Below are positions 1,141 through 5,488 of a stretch of DNA of 46,594 nt, one piece after another (position 1 is the stretch's first letter; each line of letters starts with the position of its first letter). A model generated the notes under the pieces. It had not been told where the DNA came from. It saw nothing but the letters and a program-made list of their open reading frames with translations, and made no database searches. Made by a program: the position numbers and the translations under genes. Source of the stretch: Minisyncoccota bacterium (GTDB taxonomy: Bacteria > Patescibacteriota > Minisyncoccia > Phycocordibacterales > JACOZG01); assembly GCA_020057185.1 (NCBI GenBank), contig JAGVGK010000045.1, forward strand, positions 1-46,594, read 5' to 3'.

Positions 1141-2493
1141 AGAAAAACCGGAACCAAACAAGAAACGATTCAGCCGATTGGTGTGATGAACGCCGATCGC
1201 CAAGAGGAAAGTGCGAGTAATGCTAATCGCCGTCAACATACTAATCAACACACCGATCGCGAGCGTGAGGGCGAAACCGCGCACCAAACTCGTCCCGAAC
1301 CAAAAGAGAATCAGCGCAGAGATGATGGTCGCGAGATTAGAATCACGAATCGACGCCCACGCCCGTGAGAAGCCGTGACTGATCGCGTCGTGCATATTCT
1401 CGGTGTGACGCATCTCTTCCTTCAGGCGCGCGAAAATAAGAATATTCGCGTCCACCGCCATCCCGACCGAAAGAATGAAACCGGCCATGCCGGCGACGGT
1501 GAGCGTCACCGGCAGGAGTTTGAAAATTGCCAGCATCAGCGACACATAAATCCCGAGTGAGAGGACCGCGAGCACGCCGTTGATGCGATACCAGAGAATC
1601 ATAAACACCGCGACGAGAAGCAGGCCGATAATCCCCGCTCGCACCCCGCGATCAAGTGCTTCTTGGCCAAGCGTCGCGCCGATCGTCTCCGTCGAAACTA
1701 ATTTAATCGGCACGGGTAAAGCCCCGAGATTGAGATTGCGAACCAAGGTGCGCGCTTCTTCAACAGTAAAGTCACCCGAGATTTCAGCTCGACCATCCTT
1801 AATCTCCTCGCGCACAACTGGCGCGGAGAGAAGTTCGCCATCAAGATAAATACCAATGCGCTTATCCACATTCTCTTTCGTTAATTTGGCAAAAATATCG
1901 CCCCCCGTCTGATCGAACTCCACCGAAATGGTCGGGTTAATTGACTGACTGCTGAATTGCACTTGCGCCCGCTTGAGATATCGGCCAGTGAGCTCACTCG
2001 GAATGAAATCGGGATTTTCCGCCAGCAACGGATTCGGCGTAATCGCTCCGCCCTTCGCCATTTCCACCCGCGCCGTTTCGATCGCCTTCTTTATCGCTTC
2101 CTTCTCCGGCCCGTCCGGCCGTTCAATTTTGAATTCGAGGACTGGGGTAACACCGATCACTTTAAGGGCCTCTTCTACATCTGTCACGCCAGGTAATTCG
2201 ATGATCAAGCGGTGTGCCCCACTCCCGCCAATTCCAACTTGCTCAACTTGGATCAAAGGTTCGCGAACACCGAAAGTGTTCACCCGCCTTTCAACCACTT
2301 CGCGAAGCGAGGCCATCGCTTCGCCGACATCAACATCGGTTGGCAAAGCCGAGGTGTCGGCTTGATAGACCAAGTGACTTCCCTCGCGCAGGTCCAGACC
2401 GAGTTTGAATGGTCGAAGAGAAGACAGATCAAAATAGGTCAGCCCCAAGCCGAAGAGAATTAAGATCACTGCAATTATCCGCCGACGGGTCAT
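1135..2493 (-). CDS. secD: protein translocase subunit SecD
   Basis: LGLDLREG, RRVNTFGVREP, GALPVP, GMAVDANILIF motifs. Confidence 0.97.
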   Translation of the reverse strand: MTRRRIIAVILILFGLGLTYFDLSSLRPFKLGLDLREGSHLVYQADTSALPTDVDVGEAMASLREVVERRVNTFGVREPLIQVEQVGIGGSGAHRLIIELPGVTDVEEALKVIGVTPVLEFKIERPDGPEKEAIKKAIETARVEMAKGGAITPNPLLAENPDFIPSELTGRYLKRAQVQFSSQSINPTISVEFDQTGGDIFAKLTKENVDKRIGIYLDGELLSAPVVREEIKDGRAEISGDFTVEEARTLVRNLNLGALPVPIKLVSTETIGATLGQEALDRGVRAGIIGLLLVAVFMILWYRINGVLAVLSLGIYVSLMLAIFKLLPVTLTVAGMAGFILSVGMAVDANILIFARLKEEMRHTENMHDAISHGFSRAWASIRDSNLATIISALILFWFGTSLVRGFALTLAIGVLISMLTAISITRTFLLAIGVHHTNRLNRFLFGSGFST

Positions 2494-2531
2494 ATAATGT
2501 TATGGACGCTATTATAACTACTCGTCATAAT

Positions 2532-3524
2532 TTAGCAAATAGCATTCAAAATCTGGATTTTTAATTTGTAAGTATTTCCGTGATTAATTAACCCTAAATA
2601 AGACGCAATAGTTTCTCTTCTTTTTTCTTGTCGTTCGATATTTTTAAACATCCTTCGTCTTGTCGCCCGTCTCAACACTCGATGATCAGGAAAATGCACC
2701 CAGCCAAGGAAATCAATTCCCGAAGCGAGGGTTTTGATTGAAATTTTGTCTGGGTGTAAAACGAGTTTAAGATTCTGTAACAAAAAATAATTTAGTTCGG
2801 ATAAAATAATTAGGAGCCAGTTTTTATCTTGGCTCATCACCACAAAATCATCGGCGTAGCGCAAATAATATCTGGCCTTGATTTTATTTTTTACAAACTG
2901 ATCTAGTTGATTAAGATAAACATTGGCAAAGAGTTGAGAAGTTAAATTACCCAGAGGCAGTCCAACCCCATTTTGAGTAGAATGAAAACTTCGAATAATT
3001 TTAGATAAAAGAAATAGGGTATCGGCATCAAAAACATAATCTTTAATGATTTCAACCAAGGTGTCGTGATCAATCGAAGCAAAAAATTTCCGGACATCAC
3101 ATTTAAGCACCCAAACAGTTTTGGTGTGATTCTTTGAAACTTGGTGCGCCAAAGATCGAAAGCGGTCGAGCGCTTTATGCGTCCCCTTACCAAACCGACA
3201 AGAATACGAATCATAAATGAAAGTTCGATCAAAGAATGGATAAAGAATTCGATAGAGGGCGCGGTGAAGAAGTCTATCTCTGACACTAGCTTTGTGGATA
3301 CTCCTCGGTTTCGGATCCGAAACACGGAAAGCTTCATAATTGGCGTGCTGATAGGTTTTTGATTTGAGATCATTGTGAAGAGACAACAAATTATCCATTA
3401 GATTTAGCTCAAACATTTGAACATCATGACGAGACCGCTTCCCGCTCGCAAATTCTCGCCACGCTTCGAGAAGATTTTCGAGCGATATGATACGATCATA
3501 GCCATGACTAAAAATTATTCTCAT
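2532..3524 (-). CDS. DGR reverse transcriptase (~330 aa; ATG at 3524 preferred over the ORF-track start at 3572)
   Basis: KPRSIH, RDRLLHRAL, LKCDVRKFFASIDH, GLPLGNLTSQ (DGR-type SQ), RYADDFV, GIDFLGW; no maturase or endonuclease extension. Confidence 0.95.
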   Translation of the reverse strand: MRIIFSHGYDRIISLENLLEAWREFASGKRSRHDVQMFELNLMDNLLSLHNDLKSKTYQHANYEAFRVSDPKPRSIHKASVRDRLLHRALYRILYPFFDRTFIYDSYSCRFGKGTHKALDRFRSLAHQVSKNHTKTVWVLKCDVRKFFASIDHDTLVEIIKDYVFDADTLFLLSKIIRSFHSTQNGVGLPLGNLTSQLFANVYLNQLDQFVKNKIKARYYLRYADDFVVMSQDKNWLLIILSELNYFLLQNLKLVLHPDKISIKTLASGIDFLGWVHFPDHRVLRRATRRRMFKNIERQEKRRETIASYLGLINHGNTYKLKIQILNAIC

Positions 3525-3918
3525 GATGGTAATGTTACCCCCCCCGACGCTTTTGCCACTGCTCCAACACACAAAAGGTGCTTACCTAATATGGTATGGC
3601 TACTACCAGACATTACCGAAAACTCATCGACACTCTCTGGGCCAAAGAATTGACACATTGTTTGTAGAAATTATGGAAGCCATCGCCGCGGCTGGATTTT
3701 TATCACGGGAAGAGAAACCCCCTTATGTCCGACTGGCTATTCGCAAAACGGACACGCTAAAAGTATTACTGATGGTGTTGTGGGAAACTAAATCTCTTGA
3801 TAGCAAAAAATATATCGCTATTTCTCTGAAAATAAACGGGGTCGGAAAAATGCTCGGTGGTTGGAACGGACAACTCTTAAAACAAAACTCCCTCGGCAAT
3901 AAACCGAAGGAGAAATGA
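3523..3918 (+). CDS. avd: Avd-like four-helix-bundle accessory variability determinant (start could be 3523, 3526 or 3532)
   Basis: ~130 aa basic helical protein with LPKTHRHSLGQRID and GKMLGGW motifs; lies between TR and RT. Confidence 0.88.
   Translation: MMVMLPPPTLLPLLQHTKGAYLIWYGYYQTLPKTHRHSLGQRIDTLFVEIMEAIAAAGFLSREEKPPYVRLAIRKTDTLKVLLMVLWETKSLDSKKYIAISLKINGVGKMLGGWNGQLLKQNSLGNKPKEK
3879..3912 (-). terminator. putative intrinsic terminator of the TR RNA, embedded antisense in the 3' end of avd
   Basis: Minus strand ctccttcgg-tttattg-ccgagggag followed by ttttgtttt. Confidence 0.6.
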
Positions 3919-3926
3919 AGCGAGTA

Positions 3927-4049
3927 GCGAGCACAGCCGCGGGGTTGTTGACGTTCCAGTCGTTGTCGAGCCAGTTGTAGCTCCAGTTCCACCTGTCGCC
4001 GTTCCAGCAGAGGTAACGGACGTAGAGGTCGTCATCCGAGTTGCGGTTG
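3927..4049 (-). repeat. DGR template repeat (TR)
   Basis: 123-bp ungapped match to 4417-4539 (offset 490); 17 mismatches, all A in TR on the minus strand; 9 AAC codons in the VR reading frame. Confidence 0.97.
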
Positions 4050-4299
4050 CGTACAAGGTATCATCTATGCCACTGCCCCCAGTTTACTAAAATAGCAAAC
4101 CAAAAGCTGTATCGTATTCGTGATCGATAATCACTTAATACCCTGCACCAAGTAGCTTCATTTTTTGAAGTGTCTGCATACACCACTCTACCCAAAACCA
4201 TAGTCGTGAGTATTCTCGATGTATGGATACTGGGTTCGGTAGCGAGCAACCTTGATCGCCCGCATATTCACCTACTACCGCAACTATATTATCACAAAC

Positions 4300-4348
4300 A
4301 AAAAGAACCCCGCATCTTATCTGTGGTTAAACAGAAAAAATGCGGGGT
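4300..4348 (-). terminator. intrinsic terminator of the DGR target gene
   Basis: 18-bp inverted repeat 4307-4324 / 4331-4348 (2 mismatches) followed by a T-rich run on the minus strand. Confidence 0.75.
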
Positions 4349-4376
4349 CCGAGGACTAAGATCAAAGTGTCCAAGT

Positions 4377-4982
4377 TCAGTTTAGGACACAGTGACCGAG
4401 TCCACAGTGCGAACTTGCGAGCACAGCCGCGGGGTAGCTGACGCCCCAGTCGACGCCGAGCCAGTCGTAGCGCCAGAACCACCCGTCGCCGTACCAGCAG
4501 AGGAAACGGACGTAGAGGTCGCCATCCGAGTCGCGGTAGATAGTCCCCCAGAAGTAAACACGCTGGGTTTTCCATTCTTCGGGGATAAGCTCGGGATGCT
4601 TGAGTAGGAAGTCCAGCACATTGGCGTTCAGAACCCTCTGGCTCTTGAGTACCTCGCGTAGAACATCCCCCTTCATCCATTTGCCATCCTTCTGGTCGTC
4701 AGCGATATAAAGGGTGACGAGCGACTCTGTCCATTTGATAGGAACACCCTTCTGGTGTTCCTCCACCTTCCAACCCTCGGGCAGGAAGGGATCGGCGCAG
4801 CAGTCAATCACATGGTTGGCTTCCTTCGCCTCCCATATTCCCTTGAGGACATTGCGAACCCAAGCGAGATTGTCTCCCGTCGAGAGTTGCTTGACCAGCG
4901 CGGCATCCCATTTGCCCACTCGATTCATCGCCATTTCAAGCTCGTGCGCTTGACCGACACCCATTGTGAAGTCGTTAGACAT
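4377..4982 (-). CDS. DGR target protein (201 aa) with C-terminal variable region, probable C-type-lectin-like fold
   Basis: AGAAAGGAG Shine-Dalgarno before ATG at 4982; C-terminal YRDSDGDLYVRFLCWYGDGWFWRYDWLGVDWGVSYPAAVLA is encoded by the VR; fold is inferred from DGR precedent. Confidence 0.92.
   Translation of the reverse strand: MSNDFTMGVGQAHELEMAMNRVGKWDAALVKQLSTGDNLAWVRNVLKGIWEAKEANHVIDCCADPFLPEGWKVEEHQKGVPIKWTESLVTLYIADDQKDGKWMKGDVLREVLKSQRVLNANVLDFLLKHPELIPEEWKTQRVYFWGTIYRDSDGDLYVRFLCWYGDGWFWRYDWLGVDWGVSYPAAVLASSHCGLGHCVLN
4417..4539 (-). repeat. DGR variable repeat (VR)
   Basis: Copy of TR with 9 A>G, 7 A>T and 1 A>C changes; GC-rich invariant 3' end, then divergent IMH-like tail. 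Confidence 0.97.
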
Positions 4983-5152
4983 AGCTAACTTCTCCTTTCT
5001 GTCGTGAGACTTGTTCACTCGAACTCGTCTCGTCCCTTGTTTACGGCTTAGCACAATGCTTCGCCACAGCAGAGAAAGGCCTATAATCTAAGCCGTTTTC
5101 TGCTATGGCGAAACGCAAGTTGGGTATCAAAGAACTTCTCTATTCTTTCCCT

Positions 5153-5181
5153 ATTATACACCCGTCACTAACACTTGTCAA
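5153..5181 (-). promoter_or_regulatory. consensus sigma70 promoter of the DGR target gene
   Basis: TTGACA (5181-5176), 17-bp spacer, TATAAT (5158-5153). Confidence 0.8.
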
Positions 5182-5251
5182 TAGTCCGTAATGGTTCATA
5201 ATAAGTCATACTAATTGTCTCCAAATGCAAACTGTGCTAGAGTGGTCGGAT

Positions 5252-5488
5252 ATGGAAATCATTAAAACGATTTTGCCGTGGGTGCAGATTATTGTCGCCA
5301 TTGCCGTGGTCGTCGCCATTCTGCTTCAACGCAATGACGCCGCTTTGGGCGGGGTCTTCGGTGGTAGTGGTAGTGTCGCTCATACGAAACGAGGTTTGGA
5401 GCGCGGTCTCTTCGTCACCACGGTGGTTTTGGCGATCCTTTTTGTGATCACCGCGATTCTCTCTTTTCTCCTTCAAGCCACCGTTTAG
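5252..5488 (+). CDS. secG: preprotein translocase subunit SecG
   Basis: Two TM segments flanking ILLQ...LGGVFGG...TKRGLE; ATG at 5252 preferred. Confidence 0.93.
   Translation: MEIIKTILPWVQIIVAIAVVVAILLQRNDAALGGVFGGSGSVAHTKRGLERGLFVTTVVLAILFVITAILSFLLQATV

Follow-up and report, generated by a model that had tools for sequence, protein, structure and literature searches.

To our knowledge, the mechanism of DGRs has been worked out for one phage element only, in which RNA located downstream of the template repeat (TR) binds the reverse transcriptase (RT) together with Avd and also provides the primer. In the Bordetella phages BPP-1 and BMP-1, genes are arranged in the order mtd-avd-TR-brt, the target is a tail fibre, and the folded RNA lies mostly downstream of TR, with segments flanking TR that pair across it. 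CPR form the most DGR-rich bacterial lineage, and have avd inverted into this downstream space. In retron msr-msd, the template is preceded on its 5' side by the structured non-coding part, and an upstream segment is joined through an inverted repeat to one just 3' of the template, near the point where reverse transcription begins.

For CPR, the text of Wu et al. 2018 (PMC5758913) names the arrangement TR-(avd)-RT with a reverse-strand avd architecture B3, and reports it in 90% of the CPR set of that study; B3 is equivalent to the DGR clade 2 of Roux et al. 2021 (PMC8144416). A structured RNA placed beside TR, on the TR strand, is presented as the RT-10 motif in Weinberg et al. 2017 (PMC5737381), and corresponds to RF03022 Phage_DGR; as outlined there, it is found between TR and RT. 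For the one studied DGR, the preprint of Handa et al. states that cDNA synthesis depends on RNA from both flanks of TR; the region analysed, as presented, was limited to 40 nt before TR and 100 nt after it.

The locus described here is contained in a window of 46,594 nucleotides (the whole stretch of DNA that was analysed). It is a genuine, complete DGR, of a type common in ultra-small CPR bacteria. A DGR-type RT, adenine-only differences between TR and the variable repeat (VR), an Avd homologue and a single target with a C-terminal VR were all found, in agreement with the class proposed in a preliminary description of this DNA; the CPR context proposed at the same time fits RT relatives filed under Patescibacteria record titles and a genome size of 0.78 Mb. 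Gene order, inverted avd and gene content are equal to those of the CPR B3 DGRs (Wu et al. 2018, PMC5758913), and a short target devoid of transmembrane or known domain is likewise mentioned, in the text on clade 2, by Roux et al. 2021 (PMC8144416). The inverted avd is already known for CPR DGRs, and the element is a further example of a known DGR kind, with ordinary gene content. In contrast, a leader RNA of ~230 nt, as predicted below, is not mentioned in the passages of these two papers cited here (PMC5758913, PMC8144416).

With BPP-1/BMP-1, the element shares adenine-specific TR-to-VR transfer, a TR rich in AAC whose adenines occupy codon positions 1-2, a VR at the target 3' end, a GC-rich shared 3' end, Avd, the RT active-site motifs, and RNA segments flanking TR that pair across it. 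It differs by its avd, on the opposite strand and between TR and RT, by a folded RNA mostly upstream of TR, and by its target, a 201-aa protein without membrane segment. Compared to RF03022 as described by Weinberg et al. 2017 (PMC5737381), the RNA is upstream of TR, differs in size and sequence, and has no detectable similarity. The topology of the leader RNA is like that of retron msr-msd, but the RT does not belong to the retron clade and its product would rewrite a gene.

Genes and layout of the cassette

Features are summarized in Table 1. The cassette is flanked by secDF and secG, and is cellular, not phage-borne. Its order is target/VR - leader RNA - TR - (avd, opposite strand) - RT, with RT, TR and target on the minus strand and avd on the plus strand. 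TR is therefore upstream of RT with a reverse-strand avd in between, as in B3, and the same holds for 4/4 cassettes of this genome, in which avd has an identical position and strand; this arrangement is kept in relatives.

Table 1. Features of the cassette, by increasing position in the window
Feature	Position	Strand	Remarks
DGR RT gene	2532-3524	-	330 aa from ATG at 3524, stop included; ORF, Pfam, PDB, tree
avd homologue	3523-3918	+	131 aa; divergent from RT, starts overlap; profile matches
Stem-loop directly after TR, then U-run (TTTTGTTTTA)	3888-3912	-	terminator-like match
Long-range duplex, 3' strand (GCUUCAUUU)	3913-3921	-	predicted to pair with 4155-4163; brackets TR
Template repeat (TR)	3927-4049	-	29 adenines, 9 AAC codons; repeat search and alignment
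Leader RNA, 3' domain	4053-4146	-	predicted; P4 closing hairpins P5 and P6; helices 7-9 of A2, 9-12 of A6
P4, 10-bp closing helix	4137-4146 with 4053-4062	-	ends 4 nt before TR
Hairpins P5, P6	4120-4134, 4075-4107	-	inside P4
A-run (conserved, single-stranded) and 5' duplex strand (4155-4163), then near-invariant ACUUGG	4147-4169	-	A3, A6 invariant columns
Leader RNA, 5' domain	4177-4279	-	predicted; P1, P2, P3; RNAalifold and helices 1-5 of A2
Three-part stem P3	4177-4225	-	leader 5' domain
P1	4278-4279/4232-4233 and 4269-4272/4238-4241	-	leader 5' domain
Hairpin P2	4242-4263	-	leader 5' domain
Extended -10 promoter TG-n-TAATAT	4286-4294	-	6-7 nt upstream of first conserved G of the RNA
Target-gene terminator hairpin and T-run	4307-4348	-	DNA fold
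Imperfect inverted repeat	4353-4403	-	starts 14 nt after VR, spans target stop codon
Target gene	4377-4982	-	201 aa; N-terminal helices and compact C-terminal domain
Variable repeat (VR)	4417-4539	-	target codons 149-188
Palindromic 5' UTR hairpin of target gene	5060-5112	-	self-BLAST
Target-gene promoter TTGACA-17-TATAAT	5153-5181	-	sigma-70 consensus 12/12

The RT matched Pfam RVT_1 (E 8e-24). A motif 4 of the form [ILV]GxxxSQ marks DGR RTs, and the ORF does contain the intact YADD and LGNLTSQ motifs that had been noted beforehand, aligned to YMDD and IGSLTSQ of 8ub7, which we take to be the Bordetella bRT; both proteins have [LI]G[NS]LTSQLFANVY and YxDD in common. 8ub7 was also the best PDB sequence match (160 bits, E 7e-46), the best group II RT reaching 76 bits and a retron RT 34 bits. 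The NCBIfam retron model scored 60 bits, and identity to the RT of Bordetella phage BMP-1 was 33.6% (E 6e-45). In a quick maximum likelihood tree (IQ-TREE), with no retron RT included and the split RT C28 left out, the RT joined 5 known DGR RTs and was separated from 4 group II RTs (SH-aLRT 100), so that the phylogenetic check suggested by the preliminary description speaks for the DGR class. The branch in question separates 14 CPR RTs and the 5 known DGR RTs from the 4 group II RTs and the RT of Pseudomonas phage phi3; within it, the window RT falls among Patescibacteria RTs (SH-aLRT 97).

The gene adjoining RT is Avd-like, as reported earlier. Its product matched NCBIfam DivGenRetAVD over 102/104 model positions (E 7.6e-16), at 58.3 bits for a curated cut-off of 80, and Pfam bAvd at 38.7 bits for a cut-off of 40, while a search of its sequence against PDB gave 0 matches. 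The 3' end of avd is antisense to the stem-loop following TR. No RT promoter was identified within avd, where one would be needed if this stem-loop terminates transcription. Both the inversion of avd and the presence of structured RNA in the TR-VR spacer had been overlooked in the preliminary description.

The target had no match in Pfam and 0 in a PDB sequence search, and is without hydrophobic or membrane segment (maximum Kyte-Doolittle 19-residue mean 0.95). In DGRs, the fold that presents VR is of the C-type lectin (or Ig) kind. Comparison of the AF2 model of the target (pLDDT 90.1) to PDB with Foldseek gave nothing at E<=0.001, the best value being 0.15, and alignment to structures with VIA-align gave a best Z of 4.6, which is below the tool's reliable level. 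Most of the 50 listed VIA-align structures were C-type lectin-like domains, among them TvpA (2y3c) and Mtd (1yu0), both at Z 3.3, and a Nanoarchaeota variable protein (5ioo, Z 2.8), and all were below this level. The modelled C-terminal domain looks like a C-type lectin fold, with low scores.

Position 5181, at which the preliminary description ended the element, corresponds to the -35 hexamer of the target-gene promoter. The palindromic hairpin of the 5' UTR is partly conserved, with blastn matches in the loci of 6 relatives. At the other end of the gene, the terminator region gave in Rfam a sub-threshold terminator-type alignment only (Pseudomon-1, E 0.29), and a G/C-rich stem with a T-run is found ahead of the RNA promoter in relatives.

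The leader RNA

Nowhere is the locus better conserved than in the "spacer" separating target and TR. Comparative alignments showed this spacer to correspond to a predicted multi-helix RNA of ~230 nt, on the strand of TR and RT, with a putative promoter of its own. The pattern TGnTAnnnT of this promoter is found at equal distance in 16/29 aligned relatives; the promoter is missed by a -35/-10 scan, because such a scan requires a -35 hexamer. The structure to be scored was built by hand, from RNAalifold helices and two candidate helices, and then tested. A global RNAalifold of a 723-column alignment was rejected for its implausible long-range pairs through TR.

In alignment A2 (21 sequences, 69 pairs), 96.4% of the cells were paired, as compared with 83.1% after shuffling and 40-49% after sliding, and 47 pairs were changed on both sides; 0/500 shuffles came up to this. 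A4, made of 26 new, independent matches, was 96.5% paired with 28/33 pairs covarying, and A6 (23 new sequences and the window, MAFFT only) was 92.7% paired with 56/68 pairs covarying. When the complement was scored, the 96.4% and 92.7% became 80.6% and 78.9%; G-U pairs account for ~17% of cells.

The 5' domain scored 151 bits with the covariance model R1, and is further supported by the independent matches of A4. For the 3' domain, helices 7-9 of A2 were 96-98% paired, with 9/10, 4/6 and 5/6 covarying pairs, respectively. The 3' strand of the long-range duplex begins 5 nt after TR. In A2 (helix 6) this duplex was 94.1% paired with 2/9 pairs covarying, being mostly invariant in close relatives; in A6 (helix 8) it was 86.0% paired, and 7/9 pairs were changed on both sides, the fourth pair being often mismatched in distant relatives (9/24 cells unpaired). 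The stem-loop after TR was 97.6% paired in A2 (helix 10; 2/6 pairs covary) and corresponds to helices 13-14 of A6. It overlaps the C-terminus of avd (KQNS) on the other strand, so that conservation of stem-loop and U-run is confounded by coding. The stem-loop has the appearance of an intrinsic terminator, and its position resembles that of the "Avd-binding stem-loop" of other DGRs, as presented in the preprint of Handa et al.

The leader RNA is absent from the Rfam 15 library. RF03022 Phage_DGR gave no match at E<=1 in the 2400-5300 region, and none at E<=0.1 in any of the four cassettes of this genome, for a control match of 104.7 bits in Bordetella phage BMP-1. We found no description of the leader RNA in the literature searched, which did not extend to Paul et al. 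2017 or to supplements; the preprint of Handa et al. came nearest.

We then come to the distribution of the RNA. It was recognised from the wide matching of 4146-4280 in contigs of relatives: this stretch was the most widely matched one in Logan contigs (4 runs), in which no piece spanning the locus was found. No public run was found to contain the organism (best share of words 0.13, contigs only). Of the 29 loci found with the RNA, 20 also carry avd and/or RT, arranged as here, and another 5 carry TR/target. RT and/or avd were present next to phylum-level RNA matches in 11/11 of those fetched, and 13/15 loci found by RT alone have the RNA at the expected place. At the genome level, RT occurs in 27/34 RNA-bearing genomes versus 71/200 overall. 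By this distribution, the predicted RNA is DGR-linked across Patescibacteria. In three genomes (G034, G093 and G145), RNA, TR and target are found with no RT at E<=1e-30, which indicates that a cassette can persist without its RT.

The genome itself contains three more cassettes (four in all), and the fourth (C44) gave no R1 match at E<=1. In one of the three additional cassettes, a (GA)15 tract marks the point at which RT is broken, and six other genomes show the same feature. Programmed frameshifting of a uniform kind at (GA)n was rejected, since both shift signs occur (3/7 and 4/7).

As to the role of this RNA, we tentatively suggest that TR in Patescibacteria may be part of an undescribed RNA family of ~400 nt, in which the scaffold would be permuted relative to Bordetella, priming would take place beside the duplex, with its upstream strand as a possible primer, and synthesis would halt at P4; we regard this as plausible, yet somewhat short of an even chance. 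That the long-range duplex connects the leader with the bases just 3' of TR, the necessary starting point of cDNA synthesis, that P4 abuts the TR 5' end, and that the RNA was found only with DGR parts, all argue against a different role, in which the leader would be cis-regulatory (for example, a ligand- or protein-sensing leader governing transcription into TR and RT, or antisense regulation of avd) and not a scaffold for RT and Avd. Such a role would fit a riboswitch-leader-like element at the transcript 5' end, with its own promoter and a terminator-like stem-loop after TR, and the A-run/GAAG could pair locally with an upstream CUUC (A3, unscored), giving two alternative folds. We nevertheless consider it unlikely, the one studied DGR requiring RNA on both sides of TR for cDNA synthesis according to the preprint of Handa et al.

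The TR/VR footprint and the state of the element

A repeat search returned one direct repeat pair, 3927-4047 / 4417-4537 (121 nt, 87% identity). Read on the minus strand, TR and VR align without gaps over 123 nt, and the adenine-only mismatches announced in the preliminary description were recovered exactly: 17/17 are at a TR A (9 A>G, 7 A>T, 1 A>C), for 0/94 at non-A positions, in a TR composed of 29 A, 41 C, 33 G and 20 T. Since the outermost mismatch (4048) is followed by one matching base before homology ends, a count of 16/16 in the 121-nt core is equally fair. In the target frame, 29/29 TR adenines are in codon position 1 (11) or 2 (18), within 20 codons. As also claimed earlier, no A-substituted codon can reach a stop, and the DNA variant space is 4^29 = 2.9e17; the protein variant space is 1.2e17. 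VR is single in the genome, and its 40 codons precede a 13-residue C-terminal tail of the target. Among 88 homologous targets, the A-templated VR codons had an entropy of 2.46 bits, versus 0.79 for other VR codons.

The 3'-most 19 nt are identical in TR and VR, A-free, GC-rich and IMH-like, and homology ends abruptly beyond. In studied DGRs, a hairpin or cruciform follows the IMH. The inverted repeat situated after VR is a candidate for such a structure, and the region 4290-4440 as a whole has a fold z of -4.78 (DNA fold).

The absence of changes at the 94 non-A positions argues for recent retrohoming, and places the 95% upper bound of divergence since the last homing at ~3.1%. Together with the intact RT and avd ORFs and the entropy of A-templated codons, it indirectly suggests that the element is active, or was so very recently. 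Could the cassette be a relic, with a VR written by past retrohoming and no longer diversifying in the present population? Decay does occur among such cassettes, as seen with the three related genomes that keep RNA, TR and target without RT, and with one paralogous RT of the same genome that is out of frame. In the window, however, RT and avd are intact with catalytic motifs kept, the promoter is preserved together with the RNA helices and the IMH-like end, and TR and VR differ at no non-A position, so that we judge a relic to be improbable. An ordinary duplication or gene conversion with a coincidental adenine bias has nothing in its favour beyond the existence of the repeat, and can be dismissed in view of the probability that 17 random mismatches all fall on 29 A (P = 1.7e-13, hypergeometric), of the same bias in 3 paralogous cassettes (18/19, 13/14 and 11/11), and of the adjoining DGR RT and Avd.

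Proposed retrohoming and significance

In the scheme that we propose, a transcript of ~400 nt, running from about 4280 to about 3880, would be the DGR RNA, and RT and Avd would bind its folded parts. cDNA synthesis may start at the TR 3' end, at a putative priming site beside the long-range duplex, with misincorporation opposite adenines taking place during this synthesis, which would stop near P4. The cDNA would replace VR, homing being guided by the shared GC-rich 3' end, and the last such event was probably recent. The large 5' domain would have the scaffold role held in BPP-1 by the downstream spacer RNA, the downstream side being here taken up by the antisense avd gene. We consider the reading as a whole, that of a chromosomal Patescibacteria-type DGR between secDF and secG, with a leader RNA and the proposed retrohoming steps, to be quite probable.

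As a DGR, the locus is one more example among thousands, and its value is in the RNA. With a covarying structure, a covariance model and boundaries, RNP assembly in CPR becomes testable, and these three would also help DGR finders to detect TRs, as well as orphan cassettes, in the genomes of CPR. The (GA)n interruption found in one RT sub-lineage, if it reflects phase variation, would be an on/off switch for hypermutation. Finally, if the suggested role of the ~400-nt RNA is true, it would represent a second, independent solution to template choice and self-priming by DGR RT-Avd.

The retroelement and its adenine footprint

On the minus strand, the cassette reads target gene with variable repeat (VR), a 367-nt interval, template repeat (TR), antisense avd and reverse transcriptase (RT). 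A repeat search in the first 9 kb gave a single strong direct repeat (3927-4047 / 4417-4537, 121 nt, 87% identity), and homology in the extended ungapped alignment stopped abruptly at 3927/4417 and 4049/4539. At the outer boundary, position 4048 is a mismatch with just one matching base beyond it, and a count of 16 out of 16 over the 121-nt core is equally valid. Read on the minus strand, that of the ORF holding the VR, the TR contains 29 adenines, and all 17 TR/VR mismatches fall on them (9 A>G, 7 A>T, 1 A>C; hypergeometric chance 1.7e-13), with 0 differences at the 94 non-A positions. The adenines occupy codon position 1 (11 cases) or 2 (18 cases) across 20 codons, AAC occurs nine times, no stop codon is reachable by substitution at an adenine, and the theoretical VR space is 2.9e17 DNA or 1.2e17 protein variants. 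Every number of the preliminary description was confirmed. Since the TR matches nothing but the VR in the 783-kb genome, this diversity-generating retroelement (DGR) has one target.

The RT ORF matches Pfam RVT_1. Among solved structures its best match is 8ub7 (E 7e-46, 160 bits), followed by a group II intron RT at 76 bits and, far lower, a retron RT at 34 bits. We take 8ub7 to be the Bordetella phage bRT, which its entry title does not state; the alignment places LGNLTSQLFANVY against IGSLTSQLFANVY and YADD against YMDD. Among phage records, the Bordetella phage BMP-1 RT is 33.6% identical (tblastn, E 6e-45). A maximum likelihood tree (quick search) was built from 24 RTs, namely 14 from CPR bacteria (3 of them from the source genome, the split C28 RT described below being excluded), 5 from known DGRs, 4 from plasmid group II introns and that of Pseudomonas phage phi3, with no retron RT. 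A branch with SH-aLRT 100 separates all CPR and known DGR RTs from the group II RTs, and the CPR RTs form one group (SH-aLRT 97). The grouping with known DGR RTs, rather than with group II enzymes, favours the DGR class, which had been rightly assigned from the sequence.

The avd homologue scores under curated thresholds (NCBIfam DivGenRetAVD, E 7.6e-16, 58 bits for 80; Pfam bAvd, 38.7 bits for 40). It diverges from the RT gene, and the start codons overlap (RT ATG 3524-3522, minus; avd ATG 3523-3525, plus), so that each gene must harbour the promoter of its neighbour, unless RT expression relies on read-through from the TR RNA. The same overlap is seen in two of the paralogous cassettes described below (C15 and C28), while a 43-nt gap separates the starts in C44. 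GC content within the cassette is very uneven: RT 37.6%, avd 43.7%, leader RNA 44.2%, target 56.3% and TR 60.2%, for 46.5% over the window.

The target protein has no match in Pfam or among PDB sequences and no hydrophobic segment. Its homologues, about 190 aa long, number at least 285 and are all "hypothetical", the named sources being all CPR lineages and the closest, 77% identical, a Vogelbacteria MAG. In an alignment of 88 homologues, mean entropy is 2.46 bits at those VR codons for which the TR codon of the window contains an A (2.79 for AAC), for 0.79 bits at other VR codons and 1.47 bits in the non-VR protein. The AlphaFold model is confident (pLDDT 90.1). Foldseek returned nothing significant with it, and an all-against-all structural search returned mostly C-type lectin-like domains, including TvpA, Mtd and a Nanoarchaeota DGR variable protein, at Z 2.8-4.6, below the tool's reliable level. 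The likely candidate for the fold is a compact, divergent C-type lectin. Between promoter and start codon of the target gene, its 5' UTR contains a long palindromic hairpin (5060-5112, minus), stretches of which match upstream of target genes in six relatives' loci (blastn; L012, L017, L018, L020, L025, L033); it may be a conserved leader element.

With zero non-A differences, no more than about 3.1% neutral divergence (95% bound) would have accumulated after the last homing. No public sequencing run containing the source organism was found (best share of sampled words, 0.13), and the four runs mapped were assembled contigs of relatives. Because 17 of 29 adenines but 0 of 94 other positions have changed, all parts are intact, and the family is hypervariable at templated codons, the DGR is probably active, recently or currently.

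Features of the cassette (window coordinates unless a contig is named)
Feature	Position	Strand	Remark
Target gene promoter	5181-5153	minus	12/12 consensus match
Target gene	4377-4982	minus	201-aa ORF; VR = codons 149-188
Extended -10 promoter	4294-4286	minus	
Helices P1-P3	4279-4177	minus	
A-run	4169-4164	minus	
AAAUGAAGC	4163-4155	minus	5' strand of long-range duplex
ACUUGG, within UACUUGGU	4154-4147	minus	nearly invariant
Helix P4 closing P5 and P6	4146-4053	minus	
TR	4049-3927	minus	
UACUC	3926-3922	minus	
GCUUCAUUU	3921-3913	minus	3' strand of long-range duplex
9-bp stem-loop (U-run follows)	3912-3888	minus	
avd homologue	3523-3918	plus	131-aa ORF; NCBIfam/Pfam matches
RT gene	2532-3524	minus	ORF, 330 aa from ATG
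Further complete-looking cassette	C15:7801-10359		target/VR - RNA - TR - (avd) - RT
Further complete-looking cassette	C44:6067-8633		target/VR - RNA - TR - (avd) - RT
Further complete-looking cassette	C28:26142-29196		target/VR - RNA - TR - (avd) - RT

A structured RNA upstream of the template repeat

In the mapping of relatives' contigs, the deepest and most widely matched stretch of the window was 4146-4280, a non-genic segment between the target terminator and the TR. When 200 sampled genomes of the same order were searched by BLAST with 4050-4416, 34 genomes from many families matched. Nucleotide identity was 66-86%, apart from a few matches shorter than 40 nt that reached 92-100%; the RTs of the matched loci are only 57-66% identical in protein. 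Among 29 fetched loci, 20 had avd and/or RT with order and orientation conserved, and 5 more had a TR and a target-like gene; with the queries used, the element stood alone in the last 4, some on short contigs.

The 29 copies align into a multi-helix structure with compensatory changes in 40 of 54 predicted pairs. A fixed structure (P1-P6 and two candidate helices) was then scored by pair counting on three alignments. In 21 full cassettes (A2), 96.4% of the cells over 69 pairs were paired, and 47 of the 69 pairs had changes on both sides; shuffled controls gave 83.1% (0/500 as high) and slid controls 40-49%. In 26 hits of the covariance model R1 (137 positions, 33 pairs), all from outside model building (A4), 96.5% were paired over 33 pairs (slid, 37-47%), with both-side changes in 28. 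In 23 further sequences plus the window (A6), drawn from phylum-level and RT-seeded loci and aligned by MAFFT only, 92.7% were paired over 68 pairs (slid, 43-49%), with both-side changes in 56. About 17% of paired cells are G-U, and the paired fraction drops to 80.6% (A2) and 78.9% (A6) on the opposite strand, so the folded strand is the minus strand, in the sense of TR and RT.

In 16 of 29 sequences, 6-7 nt separate the end of the promoter motif (TGnTAnnnT) from the first conserved G; in many cases the motif comes directly after a preceding G/C-rich stem and T-run. The complementary 9-nt segments bracket P4-P6 and the TR. Their duplex is nearly invariant in close relatives (94% paired, 2 of 9 pairs covarying); in the more diverse set 86% of cells are paired, with both-side changes in 7 of 9 pairs and a fourth position often unpaired. 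The stem-loop and U-run following the TR score as an intrinsic terminator and overlap, on the other strand, the final avd codons, including a conserved KQNS. This Avd C-terminus (3886-3900) lies opposite the U-run, and both are conserved together in relatives (GAGUUUUGUUUU; A2 and A6); the opposite-strand RNA signal may constrain this protein sequence, or be constrained by it.

Distribution of the leader RNA and paralogous cassettes

Across the phylum, R1 gave full-length hits (E<=1e-3) in 18 of 150 sampled genomes, and RT and/or avd accompanied the RNA in all 11 loci fetched. Conversely, when loci of a named genome collection were seeded by RT, 13 of 15 had the RNA on the same strand as the RT, upstream at the expected distance; of the two without it, one has no upstream DNA. 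In the order-level sample, RT was present in 27 of the 34 leader-RNA genomes, for 71 of 200 overall. Support is strong for the leader RNA being structured and for its being a DGR component. Three of the seven exceptions (G034, G093, G145) have leader RNA, TR and target with VR (loci L020, L013 and L016) but lack both avd and RT within 1.5 kb and, at E<=1e-30, any RT homologue genome-wide; G093 is a single contig rated 100% complete. These orphan cassettes are either relics or served by something that this RT query missed.

Searching the source genome with the RT gave four loci, that of the window and three on contigs C15, C44 and C28. The layout of these three is that of the window cassette, with avd on the opposite strand in each, and their TR/VR mismatches show the same adenine bias (18/19, 13/14 and 11/11, respectively). 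Identity to the window RT is 59%, 49% and 43-49%, and target length 226, 277 and 358 aa. R1 scores 151 bits on the window copy, 119 on C15 and 40 (E 1e-6) on C28; it has no hit in C44 at E<=1, where a diverged P2-like hairpin is seen by eye at the corresponding place of the alignment. Four cassettes are many for 0.78 Mb, but up to six RT matches occur in sampled relatives.

The C28 RT (C28:26142-27232; loci L008/L042) is split in two ORFs exactly at a (GA)15 run (C28:26638-26667), the sole dinucleotide run of at least 6 units in the genome; loss of one GA unit or gain of two would restore one ORF. Six further genomes of the order (G151, G099, G176, G085, G081, G112) have GA runs of 13-23 nt at the corresponding RT site, just before motif 4. 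The halves are in different frames in 7/7, a count biased by the choice of split-looking RTs; neither half contains stops, and the shift is of one sign in 3 and of the other in 4. Among 23 single-piece RT loci, 21 were scorable at the site, all without a run longer than 10 nt. The run is a candidate slipped-strand ON/OFF switch of the DGR RT, the alternatives being decay and an assembly artefact. Literature pairing "diversity-generating retroelement" with "phase-variable" concerned, by its titles, gut phages and invertons.

Known DGR RNAs and a proposed mechanism

In BPP-1, the RT-10 motif sits between TR and brt, in the account of Weinberg et al. 2017 (PMC5737381). Rfam 15 lists it as RF03022 Phage_DGR, which scored 104.7 bits on the BMP-1 control and had no hit at E<=0.1 in the four cassettes of the source genome; against 2400-5300, Rfam gave nothing at E<=1 but a terminator-type alignment. 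The preprint of Handa et al. (10.1101/2023.10.23.563531) assigns to the BPP-1 downstream spacer an Avd-binding stem-loop, the priming adenosine, a strand that base-pairs with RNA preceding the TR ("cPRT stop"), the single-stranded "thumb ring" and a stem-loop that binds RT, and reports similar stem-loops and upstream/downstream pairings predicted in 207 of 278 DGRs, CPR included. As described there, those predictions covered just the 40 nt before and the 100 nt after the TR, whereas the 5' duplex strand of the window lies 106 nt upstream and P1-P3 further, both outside that range. A literature search, with Paul et al. 2017 and supplements beyond its reach, found no description of such a leader, which may be new.

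We propose that the DGR RNA extends from about 4280 to about 3880. Since antisense avd fills the space 3' of the TR, the scaffold binding RT, and perhaps Avd, would have moved, or always lain, 5' of the template. The long-range duplex would bring the leader beside the required start of cDNA synthesis at the TR 3' end; at the opposite, 5' end of the TR, P4 may serve as a stop. By our own comparison, this topology would be closer to that of retron RNA than to BPP-1 RNA. One primer candidate is the A of UACUC, just ahead of the 3' duplex strand, which would be the positional counterpart of Sp A56, located two nucleotides ahead of the duplex strand in BPP-1; another is a nucleotide within the invariant ACUUGG after the 5' duplex strand. 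A rival reading of the RNA, as a regulatory leader, is considered unlikely.

The cassette neighbours secF, secD, secG, a solute-binding protein gene and RNase J in a 0.78-Mb genome, and its nearest RT relatives are on contigs titled Patescibacteria, Yanofskybacteria, Paceibacterota, Moraniibacteriota and similar. Architecture B3, as defined in Wu et al. 2018 (PMC5758913), is "TR-(avd)-RT", exactly the layout of the window cassette, and Roux et al. 2021 (PMC8144416) describe a cell-encoded DGR clade that is restricted to Patescibacteria and has targets without transmembrane or known domains. Given this definition and this context, the inverted avd is a known norm of the lineage. The element is ordinary for its lineage, and the leader RNA is what is added.
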